From Squalus acanthias (Eukaryota), in the NCBI GenBank assembly GCA_030390025.1, contig CM059431.1, positions 129,086,001 through 129,150,000 of the forward strand: 64,000 nt of DNA, given 5' to 3'. Numbering within the stretch: the first letter of the stretch is position 1; every line of letters starts with the position of its first letter. Positions 3,780 to 64,000 of the stretch are shown piece after piece. Under the pieces are notes generated by a model. It was not told where the DNA came from. It worked only from the letters and a program-made list of their open reading frames with translations, and made no database searches. The position numbers were made by a program, and so were the translations under genes.

Positions 3780-5664
3780 GCCGCACTCACAAGACAGTCC
3801 AGAATGTCACCCGAGCACAACACAACGCCATCCACGCTTTCAAGACCAACCGCAACATCGTCATCAAACCAGCGGACAAAGGAGGAGCCATCGTCATACA
3901 GAACAGAATGGACTATTGCAAAGAAGCATACCGACAACTGGACAACCAGGAACACTACAGACAGTTACCCGCAGATCCGACCAAAGAACACACCCGCCAA
4001 CTCAATAGACTGATCAAGACCTCGATCCAGACCTTCAAAGCATCCTACGCGCTCTCATCCCACGTACTCCCCGCGTGGGAGACTTCTACTGCCTCCCAAA
4101 GATACACAAAGCCAACACACCTGGACGTCCTATCGTATCAGGCAACGGAACCCTGTGTGAGAACCTCTCTGGATACGTCGAGGGCATCCTGAAACCCATC
4201 GTACAGGGAACCCCCAGCTTCTGTCGCGACACTACAGACTTCTTACAGAAACTCAGCACCCACGGACCAGTTCAACCAGGAACACTCCTCGCCACGATGG
4301 ACGTCTCGGCACTCGACACCAGTATCCCCCACGATGACAGCATCGCTGCGACAGCCTCAGTACTCAACACCAACAACAGCCAATCTCCAGACGCCATCCT
4401 ACAGCTCATCCGCTTCATCCTTGACCACAATGTCTTCACCTTCGACAACCAGATTTTTACCCAAACACACGGAACAGCCATGGGGACCAAATTTGCACCC
4501 CAATACGTCAACATCTTCATGCACAAGTTCGAGCAAGACTTCTTCGCTGCACAGGACCTCCAACCAACGTTATACACCAGATACATCGACGACATTTTCT
4601 TCCTATGGACCCACGGCGAAGAATCACTGAAAAGACTACACGATAACATCAACAAGTTCCATCCCACCATCAAACTCACCATGGACTACTCCTCAGAATC
4701 GGTTTAATTCTTGGACACACGTATCTCCATCAAAGACGGACACCTCAGCACTTCACTCTACCGCAAGCCCACGGACAACCTCACGATACTCCACTTCTCC
4801 AGCTTCCACCCTAACCACATTAAAGAAGCCATCCCCTATGGACAAGCCCTGCGAATACATAGGATCTGCTCAGACGAGGAGGAACGCGATGGACACCTAC
4901 AGACGCTGAAAGACGCCCTCGTAAGAACGGGATATGACGCACGACTCGTCGATCGACAGTTCCGACTGGCTGCAGCGAAAAATCGCATAGACCTCCTCAG
5001 AAGACAAACAGGGGACACAACCAACAGAGTACCCTACGTCGTCCAGTACTTCCCCGGAGCGGAGAAACTATGCCATGTTCTTCGCAGCCTTCAACATGTC
5101 ATCGATGACGACGAACACCTCGCTAAGGTCATCCCCACGCCCCCACTACTTGCCTTCAAACAGCCGCCTAACCTCAAACAAACCATCGTTCGCAGCAAAT
5201 TACCCAGCTTTCAGGAGAACAGCGACCACGACAGCACACAACCCTGCCACGGCAACCTCTGCAAGACATGCCAGATCATCAACACAGATACCATCATCAC
5301 ACGTGAGGACACCACCCACCAGGTACATGGTACATACTCAGGTGACTCGGCCAACGTTGTCTACCTCATACGTTGCAGGAATGGATGTCCCGGAGCATGG
5401 TACACCGGCGAGACCATGCAGACACTGCGACAACGTATGAACGGACACCGTGCAACAATCGCCAGGCAGGAGTGTTCCCTCCCAGTCGGGGAACACTTCA
5501 GCAGTCAAGGACATTCAGCTTCCGATCTTCGGGTAAGCGTTCTCCAAGGCGGCCTTCGAGACACACGACAACGCAAAATCGTCGAGCAGAAACTGATAGC
5601 CAAGTTCCGCACCCATGAGGACGGCCTCAACCGGGATCTTGGGTTCATGTCACGCTACATGTAA
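3780..5664 (+). pseudogene. Penelope-like RT + Cys-rich linker + GIY-YIG endonuclease (frameshift near 4020, one in-frame stop at 4705-4707)
   Basis: FYCLPKIHK, TMDVSALDTSIPH, GTAMGTKFAP, RYIDDIF; ORF 4711-5664 is in frame with 4075-4707; PCHGNLCKTC linker; NVVYLIRC...WYTGET...LRQRMNGH GIY-YIG motif. Confidence 0.9.
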
Positions 5665-14110: not shown

Positions 14111-14212
14111 ACTGCTGGTATATATCTCAGTTGAGGAATAGAGGTTGTTTGTGCTCAGACAAAGTGGCCAGAGGGTCTTCCAAGGAGGGCACACTGCAGA
14201 TGAATTTCAGCT

Positions 14213-15878
14213 TGTAAGGGGTCTGTGTCATGCTTGTATCCCAGACGGTGCTGGTGCGGGGTTAGGCCTTCATTGCCTAATACTATTGCTTGCTCTGGTC
14301 TCCGGCCAGCTTTGTTGCAATAAGCACCTGTGAGTGGTTCGACCCACTCGCCCTTACAGTTCTAACACTGGACTTAGGTGCGAGAGCAGTAATGCAGAGA
14401 AAAACTCAAATAGACCCGGTTGAATAGTACGAAATGGAAATCTTTATTGCATAGCATCCAAAATCATGAAGTACATGTCATAGGCGCAAATTAACGAGAG
14501 TACAAGTATACATACATTCATAAAGCTTGGTCTATGGTAATGAAGAACGCACGGCACATCGTAAAAAGGGGAACACATTATATTTTATCCTTAATAAAAC
14601 CACCCTCCCTTATCAATACCTACACTACATCTAGATTTGTAGGATCGGGAAACATGCTCACCACTCGTGATACTTCGGAGAATTTTAAAGTGAGGCACTC
14701 GGCTCGTTTCGCTGCAGCGCCTGACTGTCACGTGTTTGGAGGGGTCTCTGTACCCCACTTGTTTATCTTCGCTGCTGCTGCAAGCAGGCTGGGCTCCCCG
14801 TTGTCATGAAGAACTCGACAGAACTCGGACACGGTTCGAAGAAGACTCTTCCTGTGTCCGACACCGGTTGCCGGTAGAATTCGAAAAAGAGTCTTTGGCC
14901 AGTTCGTGCAGTAACCTGTAGAGTTCCAGAAATGGGTCGTATATTTTCGGGCGCGGTCAGGGTTTACTGACCGCGGTGGCACGTGGATTCTTCTCCTCTT
15001 CTTCTCGTCCCGTCTCGTCTCTTCGGGCCTTCGGGTCCAGACACCGTTTACTGACCCTCGGGATGGTGCACCTGGTCACCGGCCTTCGTCGAGGTGGCTC
15101 GTTCCGTTTGAGCTCCACCCAACATTCGAATAACCGTCCAGTGCGGCTAAAAGTCCAGAGCCAACAGTCCAGAGAAACAAGAGCACGAATCAAGCGAATA
15201 AGAGTCGAATCAAGAGCATCAGCCGAGATAAGAGAATAAGAGCCGATTCGAGCGAATAAGAGACCGATGGACATTTGTTGTCTACAGTTATAGTGCTGTG
15301 TTCCCTTATCTCCCGCCCAAATCTTAATGTTTGTCCTTTGTGAAATATTGGCGCTCAAAACTCCCAGCATGGGGTGATTCTTGTCTTCAACGGGTTTTGG
15401 TAGCACCTGAGACTGGCCAACTACCCGTTAATGTTTTCCCCATTGTTGAACCGGCACGGAGCCTCCCTGGCTGGGTTTTGGGGGCCCCCGAATACTTGTT
15501 TAATCACCCGAGAATGGCTCTCTCATTGTAGAGCCGTGGGGGTATTTGCGTAATGATGTGTCTGGATGGGCCTTCGATTGCCCAGTACAATGGTCCTTAC
15601 TTGTGCATGGAAAACGATTCCAGCACTCATATCTTTTGCTATTGTCACAAATGCAAACAGGTTGCATCCTGTCTTTATCAGTGCTTATCGAAAATGTTTA
15701 TTCGAACGCCATCTTGTCTGCCCACTGTACTTCTGGAAACTTCTGCCACGATGCGCGGCGGCCATTTTACAGGCTTCTGTGTCCTTTATATCATGACAGC
15801 ATTTCGTTTAAATAAACTGATCAAACGAATCTGCTTTTATCTTGTTATTTCGAATCACGATAATTGCGAAACTTTACA
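14213..15878 (-). repeat. 3' LTR (1666 bp)
   Basis: Direct repeat of 24674-26339 with roughly 30-35 substitutions counted by eye and equal length; AATAAA (-) at ~14443-14448; TATA-like AAAATATAC (-) at ~14940. Confidence 0.95.
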
Positions 15879-15890
15879 GTCCCTCCTGTT
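15879..15890 (-). promoter_or_regulatory. Polypurine tract
   Basis: Minus strand AACAGGAGGGAC directly abuts the TG of the 3' LTR; short. Confidence 0.65.
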
Positions 15891-16274
15891 GATGCGAATA
15901 ACTCCGCTTATCGTATCAATTAAAAGTGGTGGTGAGCAAAATTATCCCGATTCTCCACATCCAAACACTCCCTTAACTTAAACTATCTATGGCCTCTATG
16001 CCGTCCTCATTTCCCAGGGAAATTACATTGTTTGGACTTGGACAAACCGTAGGCAGTATTGCCTTTAAACTTACATTGCGTATACACCTTCGAGGTGCAA
16101 CAGGACGATGCCTGTTGCACCACCTGTATATGCATGTTTTTATTATACAAGGAAAAAAATAATCAAACAACCATTTTAAAAATACAAAGTTCTAAACTTA
16201 GTTACACATCTTCATAACTAACAATCAATTACAAAAACACACATGGTAAAATGGAGCGGCGTCATCCTGGCCGT

Positions 16275-19200
16275 TTACGCGGTACTTTCCTCGTTCACGG
16301 CACGTAACGTTAAACATAGAACATAGAAGAGTACAGCACAGTACAGGCCCTTCGGCCCTCGATGTTGTGCCGAGCATTGTCCGAGACCAAGATCAAGCTA
16401 TCACACTCCCTATCACTCTGGTGTGCTCCATGTGCTTATCCAATAACCGCTTGAAAGTTCCTAAAGTGTCCGACTCCACTATCACAGCAGGCAGTCCATT
16501 CCACACCCCAACCACTCTCTGAGTAAAGAATCTACCTCGGACATCCCTTCTATATCTCCCCCCATGCACCTTATAGTTATGCCCCCTTGTAACAGCTGCC
16601 TCTACCCGAGGAAATAGTCTCTGAACATCCACTCTATCTATCCCCCTCATCATCTTATAAACCTCTATTAAGTCGCCTCTCATCCTCCTCCGCTCTAAAG
16701 AGAAAAGCCCCAACTCCCTCAATCTTTCCTCATAAGACCTCCCCCCCAAACCAGGCAGCATCCTGGTAAATCTCCTTTGCACTCTTTCCAATGCTTCCAC
16801 GTCCTTCCTATAGTGAGGTGACCAGAACTGCACACAATATTCCAAATGTGGTCTCACCAAGGTCCTGTACAGTTGCAGCATAACCTCACGGTTCTTAAAC
16901 TCAAACCCTCTGTTAATAAACGCCAACACACCATAGGCCTTCTTTACTGCTCTATCCACTTGAGTGGCAACCTTCAGAGATCTGTGGATATGAACCCCCA
17001 GATCCCTCTGCTCCTCCACGTTCCTCAGAACCCTGCCGTTGACCCTGTAATCCTTATTCAAATTTGCCCTACCAAAATGAATCACCTCGCACTTATCAGG
17101 GTTAAATTCCATCTGCCATTTTTCGGCCCAGCTCTGCATCCTATCAATGTCTCTTTACAGCCTACAACTGCCCTCCACCTCATCCACTACTCCACCAATC
17201 TTGGTGTCATCAGAAAATTTACTGATCCACCCTTCAGTCCCCTCCTCCAAGTCATTGATAAAAATCACAAACAGCAGAGGACCCAGCACCGACCCCTGTG
17301 GCACACCGCTGGTAACTGGTCTCCAGTCCGAAAAAGTTCCATCCACCACCACCCTCTGCCTTCTATGAGATAGCCAGTTACTTATCCAATCGGCCAAATT
17401 TCCCTCTATCCCACAACTCCTTACTTTCTTCATGAGACGACCATGGGGAACCTTATCAAACGCCTTACTAAAATCCATGTATACGACATCAACTGCTCTA
17501 CCTTCATCTACACACTTAGTTACCTCCTCAAAGAATTCAATCAAATTTGTTAGGCAAGACTTACCCTTCACGAATCCGTGTTGACTATCCCTGATTAAGT
17601 TGCCCCTTTCCAAATGGTCATAAATCCTATCCCTCAGGACCTTTTCCATTATCTTACCAACCACCGAAGTAAGACTAACCGGCCTATAATTACCAGGGTC
17701 ATTCCTATTTCCTTTCTTGAAGAGAGGAACAACATTCGCCACTCTCCAGTCCTCTGGCACCATCCCCGTGGACAGTGAGGACCCAAAGATCAAAGCCAGA
17801 GGCTCTGCAATCTCCTCCCTTGCCTCCCAAAGAATCCTAGGATATATCCCATCTGGCCCAGGGGACTTATCGACCCTCAGGTTCTTCAAAATTGCTAAAA
17901 CATCTTCCCTCAGAACATCTACCACCTCCAGCCTATCCACCTTTATCACACTCTTATCCTCAAGAACATGGCCCCTCTCCTCGGTGAACACTGACGAAAT
18001 GTATTCATTCATCACCTCTCCTATCTCTTCTGACTCCATGCACAAGTTCCCACTACTGTCCTTAACCGGCCCTACCCTCACCCTGGTCATTCTTTTATTT
18101 CTCACATAAGAGTAAAAAGCCTTGGGGTTTTTCTTGATCCGACCCGCCAAGAACTTCTCATGCCCCCTCCTAGCTCTCCTAAGCTCTTTTTTTAGCTCAT
18201 TCCTTGCTACCTTGTACCCCTCAATCGACCCAACTGAACCTTGTTTTCTCATCCTTACATACGCTTCCTTCTTCCTCTTGACTAGACATTCAACCTCTTT
18301 TGTGAACCATGGTTCTCTCACTCGGCCATTTCCTCCCTGCCTGACAGGGACATACCTATCAAGGACACGCAGTAATTGCTCCATGAAAAAGCTCCACTTT
18401 TCGTTTGTGCCTTTCCCTGATAGTTTCTGTTCCCATCTTATACTCCCTAATTCTTGCCTAATCGCATCATAATTACCCCTCCCCCAATTATAAACCCTGC
18501 CCTGCCGTATGGCCCTATCCCTCTCCATTGCAATAGTGAAAGTTACCGAATTGTGGTCACTATCTCCAAAGTGCTCTCCCACATACAAATCAAACACTTG
18601 GCCCGGTTCATTACCCAGTACCAAATCCAACGTGGCCCCACCTCTTGTCGGCCTATCCACATATTGTGTCAGGAAACCCTCCTGCACACACTGTGCAAAA
18701 ACTATCCCATCCGAACTGTTTGACCTATAAAGGTTCCAATCAATATTTGGAAAGTTGAAGTCACCCATGACAACTATTCTGTGACCTCCACACCTATTCA
18801 TAATCTGCTTTGCAATTTCTTCCTCCACATCTTTATTACTATTTGGGGGCCTGTAGAAAACTCCTAACAACGTGACCGCTCCTTTCCTATTTCTAACTTC
18901 AGCCCATATTACCTCAGACGGCAGATCCCCCTCGAACTGCCTTTCTGCCGCTGTTAAACTATCCTTGATTAACAATGCTACTCCTCCGCCTTTCTTAGCA
19001 ACTTCCCTACTCTTACTGAAACATCTATACCCCGGAACTTCCAACAACCATTCCTGTCCCTGTTCTAACCATGTCTCCGTAATGGCCACCACATCGTAGT
19101 CCCAAGTACCAATCCACGCTCCAAGTTCTCCTACCGTATTCCGGATGCTCCTTGCATTGAAGTAGACACACTTCAAGCCATCTTCCTGTCTGCCGGTACA

Positions 19201-21542
19201 TTCCTGCGACCTTGATACCCTCCTCAGTTCTCTCCACTCTCCTGTGTTCTCCTGCTTTGTGAGGCGCTTGCCTCTTTTGCAGTGCACGACCAATAGGTAC
19301 ACTACTATTATAACTTGGCACACTACCAAAATGTGGGAGGCTATCCGGATCCATGAAGGAACTTCAACATTGGTGAACAGGTCCCACCACGGTGGGATTA
19401 CTATGTCCAAAATTTCTGTCCCTATTTCTACAGTCTTTTGTTCCAGGGTGTAAAAATGTTTTTGTGATACCGCGACGGCTTTCAAAAGCTTGGTAAGGTG
19501 TTCAGGGAGAGGGGGAATGATGTATCCGAAATGCGCGACGAATCGCTGCAAGTCGGTGAAATTCTCTTTTACTGTGAGATGAACAGTGGATGGTTCAGGG
19601 ATCGGGACAATTCGCTGTTGTGCCACTTGAACTTCAGCTCTGGGTTTAAAACAGAAACTGCTGTCACTCACCGGACACCGGCTGTGGATTCCATGCTGGT
19701 AGTGTTGCGCTGCAGTGGTAACGCAATATGTTCCACCCCCTATGTATGCCACCTGCGGAGGCACATGATCTTGTGTCATTGCTTCCATGGTGCAATTCAT
19801 GGGCTTCGCGCCAGCAGTTCTGAACCCGCATTGTGGTGTTAAAAAGGCATTCAAGTGCTGGGGACAGAGTATGATGTGTGCTCCCCGGCCACGACAACCC
19901 GATAGGTCGGTACCTGTCATCGTTTGCTCCCAGCGGATGACGTAAGGTGGGACCGCTGCGTAGCGAATGTGGGCTCCCCCCTGAATGACACCAATGTTCT
20001 CCACCCGATACACCGGGGCGGGCTTTGCTGTGTCGCCCAAAACCGGCATACGTAGTACTATACCCATGATGGTATGGTTTGACCGTCCGCAGTCCGCGGG
20101 GACTGGGTATGCCTCTGAGGCTAGCCTGAGCTGGCACGGGCTTAATGCATTCTGAAAAGGGTGGAGCGCCGCAGGTGTTTGTTACTTATCCAGGATGGGA
20201 CCAAACCTTGTTTTAAATCCTCTAAATTACTGCGGCCCTCGCCCAGTAACCACGCCCCGTATAGTACGCACACCTCGTTCTGCGCAGCTTGATCGGATGC
20301 GTTCCGATCTTCCCTGATCAGGGCATTTACCGTTCTCGCATGCTTCTCCAGCTCTGCTATAATTTCTTTTAAGTGTAACGTCATGGCCTGGTCCTCATGT
20401 AACTCAGACCCTACTACCTTGTTTTCGCTTGTGAGGATGCTTTTTAATTGTGTTTTTAAACCATTGATCTGGGTCTGCAGCTCCACGTTGTCTAGAGCGT
20501 TGACCACAGATGTTCCTGTATTAAAGGCAGTGAACGTATCGTTCACAATACCCCTTCTTTGTCTCCCCACCTGATCCAAAACTTCGTGTGGTGTGGTGTA
20601 CAAGCTTGTTTTGTCAATCTCTGCAAAATCAAACTCGTAGAATTGTCTGAACATGTTTGTCAACAGGACCTGGTACAATTGTTCCGTCTCTTTGGGGCAC
20701 CACTCTGGTAAACGCACCTCGGTGAGATTTAGAATCACCGAAGCCACCGCGTAATGTACCCCTTGAAATAGTATCTGGTCTGTTGGGACCAGTACCAAAC
20801 CATTCCCGGGCCCCTTAGTGGTTTTAGGGCACCCTTCCTCCTGAGCCAAAACCACCGGAATCGTGGGCGGAGCCTTGCGTGGGCGCTTGATGAGTTCAGT
20901 GGCGTTTACCGGGATCGGGGAGAATGGAGCTCCGCACCCCTTTGTGCTGACATCCCACCTCATCCCTTTCCTGTTATCCTGCCACTGGTGTACGAAAAAT
21001 ATGGATATACCCTTGGGGCAAACGTACTTCGATCCCCACATACAAACATATATTCCCTCATCCGGTTCCCACCATTTGTCCCAACAGACTTTCAATTGTC
21101 CGTTAGTCCCCGTAATTGTCCGATGGGTATTGTTACCCAATCGCTCCCACTGAACCGAGGAATTTCTCATAGTCTTGCTTAACTTCCGTAACCACCACCA
21201 TCGGCTCAATGGGACCTTCCCATTGCATGTCAAACAAATCCTTTTGCCGACGGTGACGCTGATTCTGGGTGCAATGATCCTCACTCTGGGGCACAGTAAA
21301 GAAGTCTCTTTGTAGGCAAATCCGGACGCGCTTGAGTATTCCGTTGAATTCGTTCCCAGCCATCCCGGCCACCTTCCCTTGTGGAAATAAGTGGCGGTCT
21401 CCTCAGCCTTTCGCTCCCCGGTCCCGTCCGTCGTGATGGGGCCCGTGTCCCCGGAGCAACCAAACACAACGACATCCTTGGTGAGGCCCCGATAGGCCAA
21501 TCCATATCCGATCGTTGCGAGCACTATCAGAATCCTTTCCAT
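16275..21542 (-). pseudogene. env: env-like glycoprotein (~775 aa reconstructed): signal peptide, Ig-like domain, furin site, class I fusion-like ectodomain, TM; 1-nt frameshift at ~20172 and CR1 insertion at 16314-19244
   Basis: MERILIVLATIGYGLA signal; VTVGKRICLTC...WWW...GQLKV...DEGIYVC Ig motif; RQRR at 20564-20553; heptads VELQTQINGLKTQL; restoring one base gives [27 protein letters not shown]...-[35 protein letters not shown] then KRGKR; probable tail LTLRAVNEESTA* beyond the CR1. Confidence 0.85.
16314..19244 (-). mobile_element. CR1 LINE with near-complete ORF2 (APE + RT), inserted into the env cytoplasmic tail
   Basis: [62 protein letters not shown]; one in-frame stop at 17155-17157, then ORF 16393-17139; (TTCTATG)n tail at 16314-16328. 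Confidence 0.95.
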
Positions 21543-21726
21543 CTTTCCTGGTTCCTGTGATCAGATAAAATGATGTAGCCAGCCTCCCAAGAGTCTCTGG
21601 CTTTTGTGAAGGGTGAGCGGGTCCCTTGACCTCGTCTCACGTAAAAAGACATGTATGCTGGATAGACTTTAACTATTCCTATCACTAAAACTCCCATCAC
21701 TTTACCATTTACCTTTTTATAAAATT

Positions 21727-21796
21727 AAACTACAAACTTACCAAACTTACAAACTTAAACTTAAACTTATAAACTTATAAACTTATAAACTTATAC
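21727..21796 (+). repeat. AT-rich tandem (AAACTTA[T/C])n between ORF2 and env
   Basis: aaacttac aaacttaaac ttaaacttat aaacttataa acttataaac ttatac. Confidence 0.8.
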
Positions 21797-21829
21797 TGTA
21801 CAGTGCCGCCCGTTCCCAGGGCAGCCTAC

Positions 21830-22869
21830 CTAAAGTCTGCGAAGGCTGCCACGAGCTTTTCCCAGTGGTGGGAGGGCACTGACCCCTTCCTTTGATCTGC
21901 CGCAGCCTGTTGCTGCTGCGCTGGGACTGGGATCTCCCTGGGCTGCCTTGACCTTGAACTTACGCCTGGGGGTGTACGGGGGACTTGACCACGGCTTCCT
22001 GGGCTGGGGTGTCCGACTTGACCTACGGAGGGCTACATTGGGCAAGATTTCCAGGGCCGACGGACCAGGAACCAAGACTTCCACCGTCACGGCCTGTGGT
22101 CCCACCACAGCCGCTGGCTCCGTCTCCCCTGGCTCCGCCTCCCTGAACTCGGGATTTGCAGCTTCTGGTTCCACCCTACTTGGCCCAGTATGTGGTCCTC
22201 CACTCGCAATCCCTACCTCCCCCAAGGGCAAGATTCCAGGGCTGACGGACCGGGTACCGAGACTTCCACCGTCACGACCTGTGGTCCTACCACAGCCGCT
22301 GGCTCCATCTCCCCTGGCCCCGCCCCCCTGGAATCGGGATCTGCAGTTTCTGACTCCACCCTGTGTGGATCTCCACTCGCAGCCCCTATCTCCCCTGAGC
22401 TTGAGTCGAGGACGAAACTTTCGTCCTCCGACTCCAGCACCTCTCCGATCGGGTCACTATCTTGGTCGAGCTCCTCGAGCTCTTCCTCATCTGAATAAAA
22501 GATCCTACACTTTTCTAGAATGTCCACTCCCCTCAAGCAGGCTGCTACCCTGGGCTGAGAGTCCCCACTCGCAGGTTTGGTCCCTCCCCTGAGACAGGCC
22601 ACCGCCCCTGCTTGTGCCTTCTGTGAAATCTCGCCTGCTGGAGGCTGCAGATTTCTATTCTGTTTTAAATCCTCATACTCCCTGCTCCTGGTTACCCTGT
22701 AGGCTGCTTTTATGTCTCTAAGCTGCCTTTCCAGCCTGTCTACCTTCCCCATTAAACGGGCGTTCTCCTCCCGCAAGGCCTGCTCTTTTAACCTGGCCTC
22801 CTTACAGGAGACCCCCTCCTGTGCGCGTCTTTCAAGGGGACACAGGTAGGCAGGCTGCACCGGTTCCAG
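21830..22869 (-). pseudogene. ORF2 in the pol position: coiled coil + acidic tract + 2 x ~60-aa repeat + basic tail; 1-nt frameshift at ~22232
   Basis: ORFs 22213-22860 and 21830-22231 join if one A is restored (ggaatcttgccc versus ggaaatcttgccc in the sister repeat); in frame with gag behind TGA 22872-22870; no D[ST]G, YxDD, HHCC or DDE motif. Confidence 0.75.
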
Positions 22870-24669
22870 TCAGAAGCCTGGGTTGTATGGGGCTGTTGCT
22901 ACCTCCCCGTGCGAAATCATAAGGGACCGTATAGCTCCCAACATTGATTCTATCGCATCGGGATGGATAGGCACACCAGCTCCTCTCTCAGAGACAGGCG
23001 CTTGTTTTCGGGCTGCGGGATTTTTATCCCTGGGGTCCTTCTAGGGGTTCCTACAGTTCTTATGCCAGTGACCTGTCTTCCCGCACCCGTAACAAGCACC
23101 ACTGGCTTGTGGGGCGCGGTTTCCCTCCTGATGCCAGTCCTTTTGAGCCGGGGCTGCGGGCCGTGCCTCATGCACCTTTCCCTTAAGGGGACGCGCTCCC
23201 GTGCTCCTAGTGTTCCGATACCCTATGGTGAGTCGATTTAGGACCGACTCCTCTGTTGTGGCGGGGTTAGTGGGATCAAACCACGCTTTGGCCTGCTCCC
23301 TGACGGCTGGCAAACTGTTGGCTACTAAACACCTGAGCCAGTGAGTTAAACCGGCACCGTTCAGATAGGTGCGCGCTGGCGCACCTGGGCAGCTACGCTG
23401 GTGTACTGGCCACAGCCTGTCGGCGAAAACCTTCGGGGGTTCTCCCTCCATCTGCAGGGTTTGACTCAATCTGACAAACGGACCTTCGTCATCCACCCCT
23501 AACACTTCTAGGACCTCGTCCCTTAACTCCTCATGGGTTTTATTTCCCCTCTTGCTCTCGTCTGAGAGACACTGGAGGATCGAGCTATCTAACGAGAACA
23601 GCAACATTTTGGTCTTTTCCTCATCGTCGCAGCCATTAATTGCTGCGGTCTGTTCTACCTCCCTAAAGTGTACGGAAGGGTCGTCTGATTCGGATAGCTT
23701 CTGTACATGGCTAATCATTGCTCTCAGCTGGTGTGAGCTGTGAGGCAATACGAGCTGGTTCAGGACATCCCCCTCTGCCCCATTTGCCCCACCCGGGCCT
23801 CTCTTGTGACCTCGGAGCGGACACATCGGTCCCGGTCTCGGCTCTACCTCCGGGGACTGTCCTACCTCGGGAACCTTCTTCTCTATTTCCACCACTTCCT
23901 CCCTTTCCCAGGTTGCCGAATAGCTGGGTGGCGCGGAGGGCGCAGTGGCAAATACCTCCTCTGCTTTGTCTGGTAGGGATTTTGGGAATTCCCTACCCAC
24001 CTGTGGCTGGTTTGCTGACGGGCTGATGAGGCACACCATGCCGTTTGCCTTATTCAGGGCCTCTCTTAGGTTCCCTATCTCCTTTTGGCAAACACTGTGG
24101 TCGGCTCCCTCATGCCTATCCTCGAGGGCCATCTTATATGCCGCCCTAACTCCCTTCAAGCTTTCTTCTTGGGCTTTTATCTGGTTAGCTAGGCGGATAC
24201 ACCGTTCTCTAATCCTACCCTCGTTTAATTTCGCTTCCATGACCTGACACTCTAGGTAATCAATTTTAGCCTCATGGTGGTTGGCTACTATCTGGCGTTC
24301 CTGATGTAACGCATTCAAGGATGCAATGAGTTTCTGTCCTCCCGTGACCTTTTCCTCCATCTCAACTTCCAATTCCCTGATCTGAGCTGCCTGTGCTACA
24401 ATGACCTGGTCCGAAAGTTGGACTTGCTTCTTGTAGCACATCAGCCAGACCGCTTTCTCTACCGACTTCTTATGCACTTTACTGCCTGTCCATTTGATGG
24501 CGGCGTCTAGCGGACGCTTATCCATCAGTAGGTCACTTATCCACCTTTTGGCTAAGTTAACCTTCCCAAACACATAGTCGGCTACCCTCTCATCCATCAC
24601 ATTTCGCCTATTCACACCAGGGTCTAAAATATTACTCTCTCGCTGCCAGAGTCCTGCCGCGGTCGCCAT
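22870..24669 (-). CDS. gag: gag-like polyprotein (coiled-coil N-part, late domains, capsid, one CCHC knuckle); TAG at 23043-23041 may be premature
   Basis: Open 24669-23041; PSAPPSY at 23940-23920; MHR-like LQMEGEPPKVFADRL; CYGCGKTGHWHKNC; the frame stays open for 56 more codons after the TAG up to TGA at 22872-22870. Confidence 0.88.
24649..24668 (-). promoter_or_regulatory. Primer-binding site complementary to tRNA-Arg(TCG)
   Basis: Plus strand GAGTCCTGCCGCGGTCGCCA equals the 3' end of vertebrate tRNA-Arg(TCG) plus CCA as recalled from memory; lies 5 nt (GAAAA) inside the 5' LTR end. Confidence 0.85.
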
Positions 24670-24673
24670 TTTC

Positions 24674-26339
24674 TGTAAGGGGTCTGTGTCATGCTTGTAT
24701 CGCAAACGGTGCTAGTGTGGGGTTAGGCCTTCGTTGCCTAATACTATTGCTTGCTCTGGTCTCCGGCCAGCCTTGTTGCAATAAGCACCTGTGAGTGGTT
24801 CGACCCACTCGCCCTTACGGTTCTAACACTGGACTTAGGTGCGAGAGCAGTAATGCAGAGAAAAACTCAAATAGACCCTGTTGAATAGTACGAAATGGAA
24901 ATCTTTATTGCATAGCAGCCAAAATCATGAAGTACATGTCATAGGCGCAAATTAACGAGAGTACAAGTATACATACATTCATAAAGCTTGGTCTATGGTA
25001 ATGAAGAACGCACGGCACATCGTAAAAAGGGGAACACATTATATTTTATCCTTAATAAAACCACCCTCCCTTATCAATACCTACACTACATCTAGATTTG
25101 TAGGATCGGGAAACATGCTCACCACTCGTGATACTTCGGAGAATTTTAAAGTGAGGCACTCGGCTCGTTTCGCTGCAGCGCCTGACTGTCACGTGTTTGG
25201 AGGGGTCTCTGTACCCCACTTGTTTATCTTCGCTGCTGCTGCAAGCAGGCTGGGCTCCCCATTGTCATGAAGAACTCGACAGAACTCGGACACGGTTCGA
25301 AGAAGAGTCTTCCTGTGTCCGACACCGGTTGCCGGTAGAATTCGAAAAAGAGTCTTTGGCCAGTTCGTGCAGTAACCTGTAGAGTTCCAGAAATGGGACG
25401 TATATTTTCGGGCGCGGTCGGGGTTTACTGACCGCGGCGGCACGTGGATTCTTCTCCTCTTCTTCTCGTCCCGTCTCGTCTCTTCGGGCCTTCGGGTCCA
25501 GACACCGTTTACCGACCCTCGGGATGGTGCACCCGGTCACCGGCCTTCGTCGAGGCAGCTCGTTCCGTTTGAGCTCCACCCAACATTCGAATAACCGTCC
25601 AGTGCGGCTAAAAGTCCAGAGTCAACAGTCCAGAGAAACAAGAGCACGAATCAAGCGAATAAGAGTCGAATCAAGAGCATCAGCCGAGATAAGAGAATAA
25701 GAGCCGATTCGAGCGAATAAGAGACCGATGGACATTTGTTGTCTGTAGTTATCGTGCTGTGTTCCCTTATCTCCCGCCCAAATCTTAATGTTTGTCCTTT
25801 GTGAAATATTGGCGCTCAAAACTCCCAGCATGGGGTGATTCTTGTCTTTAACGGGTTTCGGTAGCACCTGAGACTGGCCAACTACCCATTAATGTTTTCC
25901 CCATTGTTGAACCGGCTCGGAGCCTCCCTGGCTGGGTTTTGGGGGTCCCCGAATACTTGTTTAATCACCCGAGAATGGCTCTCTCATTGTAGAGCCGTGG
26001 GGGTATTTGCGTAATGATGTGTCTGGATGGGCCTTCGATTGCCCAGTAAAATGGTCCTTACTTGTGCATGGAAAATGATTCCAGCACTCATATCTTTTGC
26101 TATTGTCACAAATGCAAACAGGTTGCATCCTGTCTTTATCAGTGCTTATCGAAAATGTTTATTCGAACGCCATCTTGTCTGCCCACTGTACTTCTGGAAA
26201 CTTCTGCCACGATGCGCGGTGACCATTTTACAGGCTTCTGTGTCCTTTATATCATGACAGCATTTCGTTTAAATAAACTGATCAAACGAATCTGCTTCTA
26301 TCTTGTTATTTCGAATCGCGATAATTGCGAAACTTTACA
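24674..26339 (-). repeat. 5' LTR (1666 bp)
   Basis: Direct repeat of 14213-15878; followed on the minus strand by PBS and gag. Confidence 0.95.
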
Positions 26340-26769
26340 AGCTTGAACACTCACAAGATCAGTAGAGCTGCAAAATGTGTCCCAAAACCTCAAAGCACTA
26401 AGTTGTGGCATCTGAAACTCAGAGATGGTGCGGGACCACTTTTAAGCTGCTGAAGCAGCTGCCAACAATTCAGGTCCTCACTAAACCCGGCTCAATGCAG
26501 CTGGCGTGTTTGTTCGACGACGGGGAACACGCAGAAAAAGCTACAAAATCGCAACAGGCAGTTAAAATAAGATTATCCAGGCAGTTAACAAGCTGTTATC
26601 TGCCTTAAGTGCCTCTCCCACCGTTTGGTGTTGGGTCAGATCGGGACTCGCTGACCCGACACTTGTCAAAGTAGCATGGAGGTGGGATGGTGGCGAATTC
26701 GCAATCCGCCGTCAATCATTTAGATTTTCGCTACCGACCCGCCCTCTAAGCGCCGGCAAATTCGCAGCC

Positions 26770-28935
26770 TAAGATTCTAGATTTAGGTTAGGCCAACTTC
26801 AACGGGATGAGGCCGAGAATGTCCACAGTAAACTGGGCAAATCTGTTAATGGGTAAAATGACAGAACATCAGTGGGAGATGTTTAAAAAAGAATTTAATG
26901 TGATACAGAACCAGGTCATACCCCTGAGGGGCAAAAGCTCTACTTGCCAAAAAAAAGCCATGGACAACTAAAGAGGCAAAGGACAACATAAAACTAAAGG
27001 AAAGGGCATACAAAATTGCAAAAAATAGCACAAATCCTGGTGTATGGGAAAGATACAAAGAACAGCAAAGAGCTACAAAAAGGGAGTATGAAAAGAAACT
27101 TGCAAGGGATAGAAAAATCAATACGAAGAATTTTTAGTTACATTTGGAAAAGGATGGTGGTCAGGAGCGATGTTGGCCCCTTAAATACTGAAAGTGGTGA
27201 TATTGTCAATGACAATGCGGAAATGGTGGACATGTTGAATAATTACTTTGTGTCAGTATTTACAGTAGAAGAAGAGGATAGCATGCCGGAAATCCCAAAG
27301 AAACGGGATTTTATTGAGTCGGGGACAGGGACTCAATAAAATTAACGTAAGTAAATTAACAGTAATGAAGAAAATAACGGCATTAAAGAGTAACAAATCC
27401 CCAGGACCAGATGGTTTTCATCCCAGGGATTTAAAGGAAGTAGTTGAGCACATTACAGATGCCCTAACTATAATCTTCCAAAGTTCTCTAGATTCAGGAA
27501 CTGTCCTTTTAGATTGGAAAATTGCGCATGTCACTCCGCTATTTAAGAATGGCGAAAGAGGGAAACCAGGGAATTATAGACCAGTTAGCCTTACATCTGT
27601 TGTGGGGAAATTGCTAGATTCTCTAATTAAGGATAGGGTGACTGAACAACTTGAAAATGTCAATTGATCAGAGAGAGCCAGAATGGATTTGTGAAAGGTA
27701 GGTCATGCCTGACAAACCTGATTGAATTTTTTGAAGAGGTGTCTTAAGTAGTGGACAGGGGAATGTCTATGGATGTTATTTATATGGACTTCCAGAGGCA
27801 TTTGATAAAGTTCCACATAACAGACTGTTATCTAAGGTAGAAGCCCATGGAATTGAGGTCAAATTATTGACCTGGTTAGGAAAATGGCTGAGTGGCAGGA
27901 GACAGAGAGTAGGGATAATGGGCAGATACTCAAATTGGCAGGATGTGACTAGTGGTGTCCCACAGGGATCTGTGTTGGGGTCTCAACTATTAACGATATT
28001 TATTAATTCCTTAGATGATGGCATAGAAAGTCATATATCCAAATTTGCCGATGACACAAAGATAGGCGGCATTGTAGGCAGTGTAGATGAAAGCATAAAA
28101 TTACAAAGTGATATTGATAGATTAAGTGAATGGGCAAAACTGTGGCAAATGTATTTCAATGTAAGCGAATGTGAGGTCATTCACTTTGGACCTAAAAAGG
28201 ATAGAACAGGGTACCTTCTAAATGGTGAAAAGCTAAACACAGTGGAGATCCAAAGAGACTTGGGGGTCCAGGTACATAGATCATTAAAATGTCATGAACA
28301 GGTACAGAAAATAATCAAAAAGGCTAATGGAATGCTAGCCTTTATATCTAGAGGACTAGAGTACAAGGGGGTAGAAGTTATGCTGCAGCTGTACAAAACC
28401 CTGGTTAGACCACACCTGGAGTACTGTGAGCAGTTCTGGGCACCACACCTCAGGAAGGATATATTAGCCTTGGAGGGAGTGCAGCGTAGGTTTACCAGAA
28501 TGATACCCGAACTTCAAGGGTTAAATTATGAGGAGAGATTACACAAATTAGGGTTGTATTCCCTAGAATTTAGAAGGTTAAGGAGTAATCTGATTGAAGT
28601 TTTCAGGATATTAAGGGGAACAGAGAGAGAAACTATTTCCGCTGGTTGGGGATTCTCGGACGAGGTGGCATAGTCTAAAAATTAGAGCCAGACCTTTCAG
28701 GAGTGAAATTAGGAAATATTTCTACACACAAAAGGTGGTAGAAGTTTGGAACTCTCTTCCACAAATGGCAATTGATGCCAGATCAATTGTTAATTTTAAA
28801 TCGGAGATTGATAGCTTTTTGTTAACCAAAGGGGTTAACCATTAAGGGGTATGAGCCGAAGACAGGTCCGTGGAGTTAGGTCACAGATCAGCCATGATCT
28901 CATTGAATGGCGGAACAGGCTCGAGGGGCTGAATC
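26770..28935 (+). mobile_element. CR1 LINE 3' part (RT), degraded
   Basis: [41 protein letters not shown]; 3' UTR gatcagccatgatctcattgaatggcggaacaggctcgagggg. Confidence 0.9.
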
Positions 28936-61326: not shown

Positions 61327-64000
61327 CTAAGCCCATGCAGCAGTACCTGGTCTCCAATTGTCCTGGGTTTCCTTGCCATTGGACCAAGATCTTGCTCTGT
61401 GAAGCTCGTGTAGTAGCTGGCGTGCAACGGCCACCCCACATTAAAAGAATTCATGCACAGGCATCTTCCACCCCTTTAAATTGAAGTTTGGGACCTGAAA
61501 CATCAGGACCCTCATGGATAACCCCAATAGCGACAGACCTGAACGTCACACTGCTATCATAGCCCAGGACTCAGACACTTCGACATCGACATCGCTGCCC
61601 TGAACGAGACACGGTGTGCAGGAGAAGGCCAGCTGAAGGAACAAGGTACTGGATACACCTTCTTCTGGAAAGGCAAACCAGAAGAGGAATGCCGTCTCCA
61701 TGGGGTTGGCTTTGCCATCAAAAATGAGTTAGTTTGGCATCTTAGAGATTCCCCTTGTGGGATAAACGAACGCCTCATGACCCTTCGGCTCACTCTAACC
61801 CAGAATCAATACGCTACAGTTGTCAGTGTGTATGCCCCAACCCTGGAAGCTATGGACGAGGAACTCTACAAAGAGGAATTCTACTCCAGCATTGAACAAT
61901 CCCTGTCTCGAGTTCCAATGGGTGACAAGCTGATTCTCCTCGGCGATTTTAATGCCAGAGTTGGAAAGGACACAAACCTCTGGAGAGCTGTGATTAGCAG
62001 GGCAGGAGTGGGAAAAACCAACTCCAACAGAATTCTTCTCCTGACAAAATGCTTAGAACATGGTCTTGTCATAATCAACACCTTGTTTCGTCAGAGAGAT
62101 AAGTACAAGGCCTCATGGCAACACCCTCGCTCCAGGCATTGGCATCTGTTGGACTACGTCATTGTCCGAGCGAGCGACCGCAAGGATGTCTGCATCACCC
62201 GCGCCATGACAGGAGCGGACGACTGCTGGACTGACCACCGCCTAATCAGTTTCGTTATCTCAATCAACCTAGCCTCAAAATGGTGGCAGCAACAGAAACG
62301 CTGCCGCAGAAAAATCAACGCTGAAGGACTCGAAGACCCTGCAAAGAAAGCCTTATTCAGTCAATGCCTCACAGCTAACCTGACGACTCCCAATGAACCG
62401 GAGCCGCAGAGTGTCAATAGTGCCTGGTCTGCCCTTAAGTCCACCATAATTAGCATCTGTGAAGAGACACTTGGTTACTCTACCAGAAAACATCAAGACT
62501 GGTTTGATGAGAACGACCAGGAGATCCAGGAGCTAATAAATCATAAACGTAAGGCATTCTTGAATTGGAAACATTATCACAACTCGAGGGAAAGGAGACA
62601 GATTTACAGACAACTGAAGGTCGAGGTCTTAGACATAGAAACATAGAAGATAGGAGCAGGATTAGGCCATTCGGCCCCTCGAGCCTGCTCCGCCATTCGA
62701 TGAGATCATGGCTGATCATCCAAACTCAGTACCCTGTACCTGCCTTCTCCCCATATCCCTTGATACCTTTAGCTTTAAGAAATATATCTAACTCATTCTT
62801 GAATATATTTAATGACTTGGCCTCAACTACCTTCTGTGGTATAGAATTCCACAGGTTCACCACTCTCTGGGTGAAGAAATTCTTCCTCATTTCTGTCCTA
62901 AATGGCTTACCCGTTATCCTTAGATTATGACCCCTGGTTCTGGACTCTCCAACCATCGGGAACATTCTTCCTGCATCTAGTTTGTCCAGACCTGTCAGAA
63001 TTTTATATGTTTCGATGAGATCCCCTCTCATTCTTCTATACTCCAGCGAGTATAAGCCCAATCGACCCAATCTCTCCTCATATGTCATTCCTGCCATCCC
63101 AGGTATCAGCCTTGTGAATCTTCGCTGAACTCCTTCCATGGCAAGAACATCCTTCCTCAGATAAGGCGACCAAAACAGCACACAGTACTCAAGGTGTGGT
63201 CTCACCAAGGCCCTGTACAAACAAAAAACATACCTAAAGATCAGATGGTGGGTGAAAAGAGTGCAGGAGATCCAGCAACTAGCCGACAACCATGACGTGC
63301 GTGGATTCTTTAGCGCAGTCAAGACCATCTACGGCCCAAGCACCCAAGGACCTATCCCGCTGAGAGCTAAGAACAATGAGGTGCTCAACAAGGACAGAGA
63401 GGCAGTCAGTGACCACTGGAAGGAGCACTTCGAAGATCTCCTCAACCAAAACTCCGTCTTCGACGTGAGTGTCCTTGACTCCATCTCACAGCATGCTATC
63501 CCGCCACTATCTCAACACAATCCCAGCCCGGCATGAGGTTGAAAAGGCCATCCGACAGCTGAAGAATTTCCGGGGCAGATGAAATCCCCGCTGAAGTACT
63601 AAAGCATGGCGGAGAAGTACTCTTGGCATGAATCCATGACCTTATCTCTCTTATCTGGAAGGAGGAGAGCATGCCAGGGGATTTCAGAGACGCCGTAATC
63701 ATGACCATCTTCAAAAAAGGAGACAAGTCTGATTGCAGTAATTACAGCGGAGTTTCCCTGTTTCTGCCACAGGGAAAGTCATTGCAAGAATCCTCCTCAA
63801 TCATCTCCTCCCAGCAGCTGAAGAGCTCCTCCCAGAGTCACAATGTGGATTCCGCCCACTAAGAGGCACAATGGACATGATTTTCACTGTGCGACAAATC
63901 CAAGTAAAATGTATGGAGCAGCATCAACCTCTGTACATGGCCTTTTTTGACCTCACAAAGGCCTTTGACTCTGTCAACCAAGAGGGATTATGGAGTGTCC
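61327..64000 (+). mobile_element. RTE-clade LINE (APE endonuclease and start of RT), degraded, runs off the window; CR1 3' fragment inserted at ~62632-63218 (-)
   Basis: IDIAALNETR, ATVVSVYAPT, LILLGDFNARVG, SWQHPRSRHWHLLDYVIVR, CWTDHRL, DWFDEND, MAFFDLTKAFDSV. Confidence 0.9.

Follow-up and report, generated by a model that had tools for sequence, protein, structure and literature searches.

A probable immunoglobulin-like head on a modular retroviral envelope protein in Squalus acanthias

Host range in retroviruses is set chiefly by the heads of their envelope (Env) proteins, about which almost nothing is known except in mammals and birds. A 64,000-nucleotide stretch of the Squalus acanthias genome (contig CM059431.1 of assembly GCA_030390025.1, positions 129,086,001 to 129,150,000; here called the window, with positions counted from its first letter) raises the question of what such a head may look like in a cartilaginous fish. 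Its minus strand carries a provirus bounded by long terminal repeats (LTRs), and the N-terminal part of the encoded Env bears a Cys/Trp/D-x-G-x-Y-x-C signature of the immunoglobulin superfamily (IgSF). The initial annotation of this stretch read the segment as a captured host Ig domain, used for receptor binding or as an immune decoy and foreign to the standard retroviral surface subunit. Here, we ask whether the segment has an Ig-like fold, what it may do, and where it may have come from. The best overall explanation, which we consider probable, is that an Ig-like beta-sandwich forms the lineage-specific receptor-binding head of a class-I-like Env. The element would encode a retroviral Env whose N-terminal binding domain is modular; the key claim, an Ig-like head, is built on evidence that lies below formal thresholds.

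Sequence and structural evidence on the fold

Minus-strand positions 21030-21290 translate to the peptide PRVRIIAPRISVTVGKRICLTCNGKVPLSRWWWLRK...DEGIYVCMWGS, and stops interrupt the plus strand. The peptide corresponds to residues 85-171 of a 466-amino-acid env open reading frame (ORF; 21542-20142, minus strand). Both the annotated peptide and its signature proved exact, and direct reading bore out their placement between a putative signal peptide and the Pro-rich KRPRKAPPTIP linker with the fusion module behind it. A 67-residue head segment (residues 18-84), unmentioned in the initial annotation, lies between the signal peptide and the Ig-like domain. The signature, written as C-x(9-16)-W-x(35-75)-D-x-[GA]-x-Y-x-C, is found a single time in the env ORF, at residues 103-167. 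When the ORF was shuffled 20,000 times with its composition preserved, the full pattern appeared in 6 shuffles and D-x-G-x-Y-x-C alone in 30, figures that exaggerate its rarity because the pattern was defined after the sequence had been viewed.

The hallmark residues are conserved in related copies; loss of the two Cys and the Trp, which the initial annotation had named as a refuting outcome, is not seen. Across an alignment of 22 env relatives with 35-74% identity (A3), C106 is kept in 21 of 22 rows, W117 in all 22, G163 in 20 of 20, and Y165 and C167 each in 19 of 20; position 161 is Asp in 4 and Glu in 16 of 20, and the window copy reads DEGIYVC at this F-strand motif. C106 and C167 align with the Cys columns of host Ig domains and form a predicted disulfide pair, and W117, 11 residues past C106, aligns with the invariant host Trp of strand C. 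Eight Cys residues are conserved in the head (29, 84, 103, 106, 153, 167, 175, and 203), with C29 and C84 each kept in 21 of 22 rows. The putative B strand also carries a CxxC motif (CLTC, residues 103-106; 21225-21236), whose C103 is kept in 22 of 22 rows and whose likely partner, C153, is kept in 20 of 20; C103 and C153 may make an additional disulfide between strands, or the motif may have a redox role. We considered CLTC as a gamma-type isomerase motif and rejected it because the fusion subunit holds no CX6CC partner.

Three sublineages in the host genome carry the Ig-like domain, and synonymous sites between them are saturated. When the sublineages are compared, the Ig-like segment has the lowest nonsynonymous divergence (dN) of the N-terminal segments (0.13-0.29), and its ratio to synonymous divergence (dN/dS) is 0.08-0.12 where dS is computable. 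The domain is under strong purifying selection.

Several sequence comparisons agree on the same family and register. Ig_3 was the sole Pfam family matched repeatedly, in 16 of the 22 relatives with a best E value of 0.0011; for the window Env, the match had E 0.58 when the whole ORF was searched and E 0.059 for the head taken alone, where residues 92-167 aligned to profile positions 7-74 of 78. Antibody light-chain V domains made up 4 of 13 weak phmmer matches in the PDB, the best at E 0.21, with C106, W116/117, and DEGIYVC on canonical columns. We also compared the env domain with two panels of exons from the same genome, 8 V-set and 8 Ig_3/I-set. Against the I-set exons, hhalign with 20 of the 22 rows gave a score of 21.8 (E 0.0016) over 73 columns, that is, the whole domain in canonical register, with C106, W117, and D-x-G-x-Y-x-C167 on invariant host columns; the best identity among the 8 exons was 29%, to L077. 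One of 320 column shuffles reached this score.

Structure modeling leads to the same fold family. An AlphaFold2 model of residues 18-228, built from the 22-row alignment, places strands at env residues 89-93, 102-107, 115-121, 141-146, 149-154, and 164-170, which is the expected Ig order from A' to F, with blocks of predicted local distance difference test (pLDDT) scores of 57-66 around strand B and strands D to F. In a Foldseek search of the PDB, the top 50 matches to this model were nearly all Ig V domains (E 0.05-0.16). VIA-align, run against 48,161 representative chains clustered at 40% identity, listed 50 matches, all of them V-type Ig domains (Z 6.1-7.0; root mean square deviation [rmsd] 2.3-3.3 A over 85-97 residues); they were led by TREM2 (Z 7.0; rmsd 2.3 A over 85 residues) and included TREM-1, antibody and T cell receptor V domains, CD8, BTLA, CD79b, and the V domain of shark UrIg2. 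On the model, these V-domain alignments begin at residue 14, equivalent to residue 31 of env.

A substantial set of results weighs against the fold assignment. No Ig-fold test crosses a formal threshold. The Ig_3 scores of 11.1-14.3 bits compare with a gathering cutoff of 30, a profile of the 22 relatives matched nothing in the PDB at E<=10, and a profile of 11 relatives matched Ig1 of DIP (E 0.11) in a different register. The hhalign probability against the I-set exons was 16%, and the V-set exons gave a probability of 0.3% (E 0.19) over 17 columns; under relaxed settings, the V-set score was 16.4, a value reached by 10 of 400 column shuffles. Furthermore, because shuffled columns lose their strand periodicity, a beta-protein of any kind may outscore them, and the I-set comparison accordingly shows an Ig-like register rather than proof of common descent. 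A language-model neighbor search with the head (Atlas) gave no usable match. Modeling followed by Foldseek, the route that the initial annotation had proposed, found Ig V domains at the top, but with no match at E<=0.001 and from a model with a mean pLDDT of 40.8 and a predicted template modeling score of 0.43, in which the G strand is absent. The VIA-align documentation cautions that a Z below 8 may reflect a common arrangement.

Such results could also be read to mean that the head has no stable Ig fold and is a Trp/Cys-rich segment whose chance resemblance is amplified by antibody-heavy structure libraries. Antibody chains dominate the PDB, where weak beta-rich models tend to land, the head model is of low confidence, and a fold search of BFVD produced no clear match (best E 0.025 at a template modeling score of 0.2; a gammaherpesvirus Ig-like protein at E 0.26). 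This account is nonetheless distinctly improbable given the conserved hallmark residues, the strong purifying selection, the consistency of the Ig_3 matches, the canonical register with host I-set exons, and the uniformly V-type list that VIA-align returned from a library clustered at 40% identity. The claim of an Ig domain therefore stands as the best reading of conservation, Ig_3 matches, I-set register, and V-type fold matches, each of which is sub-threshold and the model itself poorly scored. Independent weak lines agree on both fold and register, none of them decisive, and taken together they make it likely that the head has an Ig-like fold. There is moderate support for placing residues ~85-185 closest to the I-set, with the stretch that joins strands C and D lengthened in a V-like manner.

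Modular heads and their possible role and origin

The head is modular on the env core. By hhalign, the core is common to env lineages L068 and L066 and to a sawshark protein (P0011), at E 1e-11 to 6e-13, with no homology ahead of it. At least three other env lineages (L066/L067 and L068 in the same genome, and P0011) mount unrelated Cys-rich heads on it; these heads neither align to the Ig-like head nor match Ig_3, and none of the 104 genome matches to P0011 reaches its first 93 residues. Pro/Thr-rich stretches occupy the place of the hinge in the other lineages. With homology confined to the core and unrelated heads elsewhere, the Ig-like head is a lineage-specific, exchangeable module. In two of these lineages, L067 and L068, the integrase C-terminus lies directly upstream of env.

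The annotated view that the domain is not a standard part of the retroviral surface subunit holds insofar as other lineages carry unrelated heads, but the general plan is ordinary: in PMC9967133, the gamma-type Env is laid out as an N-terminal beta-rich receptor-binding domain, a Pro-rich hinge, and a C-domain that contacts the fusion subunit. Because the layout here resembles that order of receptor-binding domain, Pro-rich region, and C-domain, we read the head by analogy as most likely serving receptor binding. Residues 18-84 and the Ig-like domain together would form the membrane-distal tip of the N-terminal Env subunit. After removal of the signal peptide, a furin-type protease would cleave behind RQRR330, and the hinge-mounted head would bind a cell-surface receptor. 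Binding would then free the C-terminal subunit for class-I-type fusion. Counting from RQRR, this subunit in intact copies would comprise a conserved stretch taken as the putative fusion peptide, one long helix, some 200 residues rich in Cys, another helix, and the membrane anchor; the helices, at 352-444, 681-703, and 730-763, were placed only by a full-length AlphaFold2 model of the 783-amino-acid Env (11 rows), which, at a mean pLDDT of 36.8, is usable for rough helices at most. Two considerations count against the proposed role: position is the sole pointer to receptor binding, and, among the N-terminal parts, the head is conserved best, an unusual trait in a receptor-binding domain that faces host pressure.

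Modular heads imply that domain exchange occurs, and the host genome is Ig-rich (150 V-set and 150 Ig_3 matches were scored), both of which would favor a recent capture from a host IgSF gene, with the domain acting as an immune decoy or borrowed ligand. The evidence on relatives makes this very improbable. A HMMER search with residues 1-336 against 1.84 billion representative proteins returned 14 matches, none of them a vertebrate IgSF protein, and the capture of a host domain, as initially annotated, was not established; the decoy role found no support. The best identity to the 8 sampled host I-set exons is the 29% noted above, and the domain is shared by at least three sublineages with saturated synonymous divergence and by relatives in skate, sawshark, and whale shark. 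The lack of a close host protein and the deep divergence of the sublineages thus leave recent capture unsupported, and the same saturation means that any capture would be old.

The 14 matches also bear on whether the domain descends from the IgSF at all. Eleven of them are relatives of env, two are repeat proteins of the PKD/SprB type from bacteria, and one is a CCCH zinc-finger repeat protein. The bacterial PKD/SprB/CHU_C proteins (P0012 and P0013; E 6e-6 and 2.5e-5) each have 8 stretches that align to env residues 156-220, probably a sum of weak similarities among beta-sandwich repeats. The head could be a beta-rich viral domain without IgSF common descent, in which the Cys, Trp, and Tyr-x-Cys residues are convergent or a by-product of a disulfide sandwich. 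Other viral glycoprotein heads show Ig-like topology without IgSF ancestry. Every sequence match to Ig families is sub-threshold, the exhaustive search found no vertebrate IgSF protein, and the bacterial matches demonstrate that generic beta-sandwich similarity can arise. Set against this are five hallmarks conserved in canonical order and spacing (the B-strand Cys, C-strand Trp, D-strand Arg, D/E-x-G-x-Y-x-C, and a strand-E Leu/Val) and an I-set exon alignment that spans the full domain at 29% identity. On balance, we think that purely viral ancestry is unlikely.

Returning to an Ig-like receptor-binding head, an old origin within the IgSF is plausible if the fold is real, although no donor is identifiable, and we hold it as a tentative possibility. 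In its fullest form, an ancient cartilaginous-fish retroviral lineage might have taken an I-set-type domain from a host cell-adhesion-like IgSF gene and mounted it on a hinge as the receptor-binding head of an F-type, not gamma-type, core, while sister lineages mounted unrelated heads; we offer this scenario only tentatively. If true, the family would be a naturally evolved set of plug-in modules for receptor binding, and its Env might be the first from a retrovirus to carry a true IgSF domain.

The provirus and its family in the genome

The provirus spans 14213-26339 on the minus strand (12.1 kb), has no pol, and carries a long interspersed nuclear element (LINE) in the tail of env (Table 1). 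A BLAST comparison of its two ends gave an LTR identity of 98.0% over 1666 bp. Relative to the intact 783-amino-acid env ORF of another genome copy (L002), the window env has a 1-nucleotide gap near 20171 (codon ~458), and the remainder of env lies out of frame, containing the long helix, Cys-rich region, second helix, and membrane anchor (helices from the low-confidence model). The Ig-like part sits in the undamaged N-terminal stretch. Homology to another provirus copy stops at 16311/19227, on either side of the LINE, which matches Exo_endo_phos (3.7e-21) and RVT_1 (2e-28). The shifted env frame and the LINE together form a chance fused 970-amino-acid ORF (20067-17155, minus strand), the insertion lying ~10 codons before the env stop. 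Other LINE fragments in the window lie at 27918-28673 (plus strand; RVT_1, E 5.4e-7) and 61777-62646 (plus strand; Exo_endo_phos_2, E 1e-4).

Table 1. Features of the window provirus and its env gene; residue numbers refer to the env ORF
Feature	Window positions	Strand	Remarks
5' LTR	24674..26339	-	1666 bp, TG...CA; target-site duplication AGCT at 26340-26343
gag-like ORF, 542 aa	23041..24669	-	coiled-coil-looking N-terminal half, C-terminal CCHC knuckle
Small ORF in gag-env interval, 179 aa	22213..22752	-	without family match; overlaps 129-nt direct repeat
env ORF as found in window, 466 aa	20142..21542	-	N-terminal subunit and start of fusion subunit
Putative signal peptide, residues 1-17	21492..21542	-	hydrophobic N-terminus, by direct reading; no predictor used
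Conserved N-terminal head segment, residues 18-84	21291..21491	-	C29, C84, GRWPGWLG motif
Ig-like domain, residues 85-185	20988..21290	-	includes 21030-21290
Predicted strands of Ig-like domain			B 102-107 (C106), C 115-121 (W117), D 141-146 (R141), E 149-154, F 164-170 (D161-x-G-x-Y-x-C167)
Motifs in env			CLTC 103-106, WWWLRK 115-120, RTITG 141-145, DEGIYVC 161-167
Pro-rich hinge KRPRKAPPTIP, residues 219-229	20856..20888	-	direct reading
Start of conserved env core, residues 238-326	20565..20831	-	from CPKTTKGPGNG; common to lineages with other heads
Furin-type site RQRR, residues 327-330	20553..20564	-	R-x-R/K-R kept in relatives
Putative fusion peptide, residues 331-350	20493..20552	-	at new N-terminus; suggested by post-cleavage position and conservation in other lineages
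Rest of env, out of frame	19227..20170	-	DNA alignment to L002 783-aa ORF
LINE insertion (endonuclease and reverse transcriptase)	16312..19226	-	2.9 kb; at env codon ~773 of 783
3' LTR	14213..15878	-	AGCT adjoins at 14209-14212

The gag-like ORF has a zf-CCHC match at E 0.057, below the cutoff, and no Pfam match in its coiled-coil-looking N-terminal half; a similar coiled-coil piece directly precedes the env start in a whale-shark gene model (P0009). An smc-like gene is reported in some lokiretroviruses, according to PMC7947760. The ATG of the gag-like ORF lies 5 nucleotides past the 5' LTR, within a TGG-initiated stretch resembling a primer-binding site (24650-24673, minus strand); the window holds no transfer RNA genes. 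In the interval between gag and env, a 129-nucleotide direct repeat (22049-22177 and 22234-22362, 88% identical) varies in arrangement among family copies.

The env family is large and young. In the 3.7-Gb host assembly, at least 91 copies were scored at 95-100% amino acid identity, 90 of them besides the window copy at 95-98%; the 91 come from 9,018 first-look candidates, a figure that is not a copy number. A 789-amino-acid open frame is listed for 40 of the 91, of which 35 are stop-free within the match, and LTR identity within family copies is 98-99%. Although the window provirus has no pol, another copy (L034) carries protease (PR), reverse transcriptase (RT), RT_RNaseH_2, RNase_H, Integrase_H2C2, and rve upstream of the same env. 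Because pol genes precede the same env in other copies, the family can be called retroviral, with the window copy as a derivative that has no pol. LTRs with TG...CA ends, the AGCT duplication, gag, and env, together with the order PR-RT-tether-RNase H-integrase (IN) in L034, are those of a Retroviridae-type provirus. The RT of pol-bearing copies is nearest in the PDB to the murine leukemia virus type (E 7.5e-57), then to that of foamy virus, and then to Ty3. Many copies with the same env part from the window provirus upstream of sense position 3794 (by comparison with L005 and L034), and at least one of these holds PR-RT-RNase H-IN there. It follows from this comparison that a derivative with gag and env but no pol has itself been multiplied.

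Protein relatives of env come only from elasmobranchs, including skate, sawshark, and whale shark, or from unnamed records, and word-index protein searches gave just 3 and 2 matches, all elasmobranch. Some annotated gene models join env fragments of this family to host genes, namely Niban 1-like, ZFP2-like, and cadherin-related 5-like models in sawshark and an uncharacterized protein in skate (P0002, P0003, P0015, and P0006). These are probably annotation chimeras and possibly cases of exonization.

Comparison with known systems

The available portions of the literature that we covered, including PMC7947760, 10.1101/2021.11.23.469661, PMC9967133, PMC13524379, and PMC12440569, hold no description of an Ig-like head on an endogenous retroviral env of cartilaginous fishes; supplements, which could list such elements, fell outside this scope. 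The family is notable for a fusion core that departs from the gamma-type pattern and for a head that has an IgSF signature and is swapped in sister lineages. Should the fold and origin fail to hold, it would be one more uncharacterized endogenous retroviral env head.

Compared with host I-set/Ig_3 domains (PF13927 and PF07679), the env domain has the B-strand Cys, the C-strand Trp, and the F-strand D-x-G-x-Y-x-C in canonical register. It differs from them in scoring below the gathering cutoff, in 10 additional residues inserted between strands C and D, in an unusual load of Trp (WWW and WDKWW), in a second Cys pair (C103 and C153) that places a CxxC on strand B, and in the absence of a recognizable G-strand motif.

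The gamma-type Env shares with this protein the arrangement of head, Pro-rich hinge, core, and furin site before the fusion subunit. In contrast, the protein has no CX6CC in its fusion subunit and no CWLC-type motif in its C-domain; direct reading of the 783-amino-acid ORF found neither CX6CC nor an adjacent CC in the fusion subunit, and the only CxxC is the CLTC of the Ig-like domain. Its fusion subunit is also far larger (~450 amino acids), with a Cys-rich globular part between two helices. No solved Env was matched by sequence in PDB searches with the fusion subunit and core profile: the core profile (A4) returned one irrelevant match (E 1.8), and the fusion subunit alone returned none. The core matched no Pfam family either.

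F-type fusion proteins, including paramyxovirus F, baculovirus F, gypsy/errantivirus Env, and lokiretrovirus Env, offer a possible architectural parallel in the small N-terminal subunit of the env core, the furin-type site, and the putative fusion peptide, and, in a low-confidence model, in the long helix, Cys-rich domain, second helix, and anchor. Language-model neighbors of residues 230-783 fall in clusters with Gypsy, Baculo_F, and Fusion_gly (scores of 0.93-0.95), which fits this architecture and serves as a lead only. Unlike F-type proteins, this Env matches neither PF00523 nor PF12259: at E<=10, neither was found in the 783-amino-acid protein or in 5 relatives, and genome scans for the two gave no match in a strict first look that does not establish their absence from the genome. 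To our knowledge, no F protein carries an Ig-like head ahead of F2. In paramyxoviruses, receptor binding resides on a separate protein. For lokiretroviruses, PMC7947760 reports that Env matches PF00523 and resembles paramyxovirus F, and its abstract does not name cartilaginous fishes among the hosts. Lokiretrovirus membership was considered and not established, the comparison being with this published description rather than with sequences.

Ig-like modules are familiar elsewhere among viruses. In large DNA viruses, herpes simplex virus gD and the IgSF genes of poxviruses, herpesviruses, and adenoviruses supply viral Ig V-like cores or captured IgSF domains. As in gD and the DNA-virus IgSF proteins, a V-like Ig core would here serve as the surface-exposed binding module of an enveloped virus; unlike them, several of which have recognizable donors, it would do so in a retroviral Env for which no donor was found. 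If both fold and origin hold, the family would lend itself to the study of modular receptor-binding domains that share a single fusion core, and it would show a retrovirus of the oldest jawed vertebrates making use of the IgSF.

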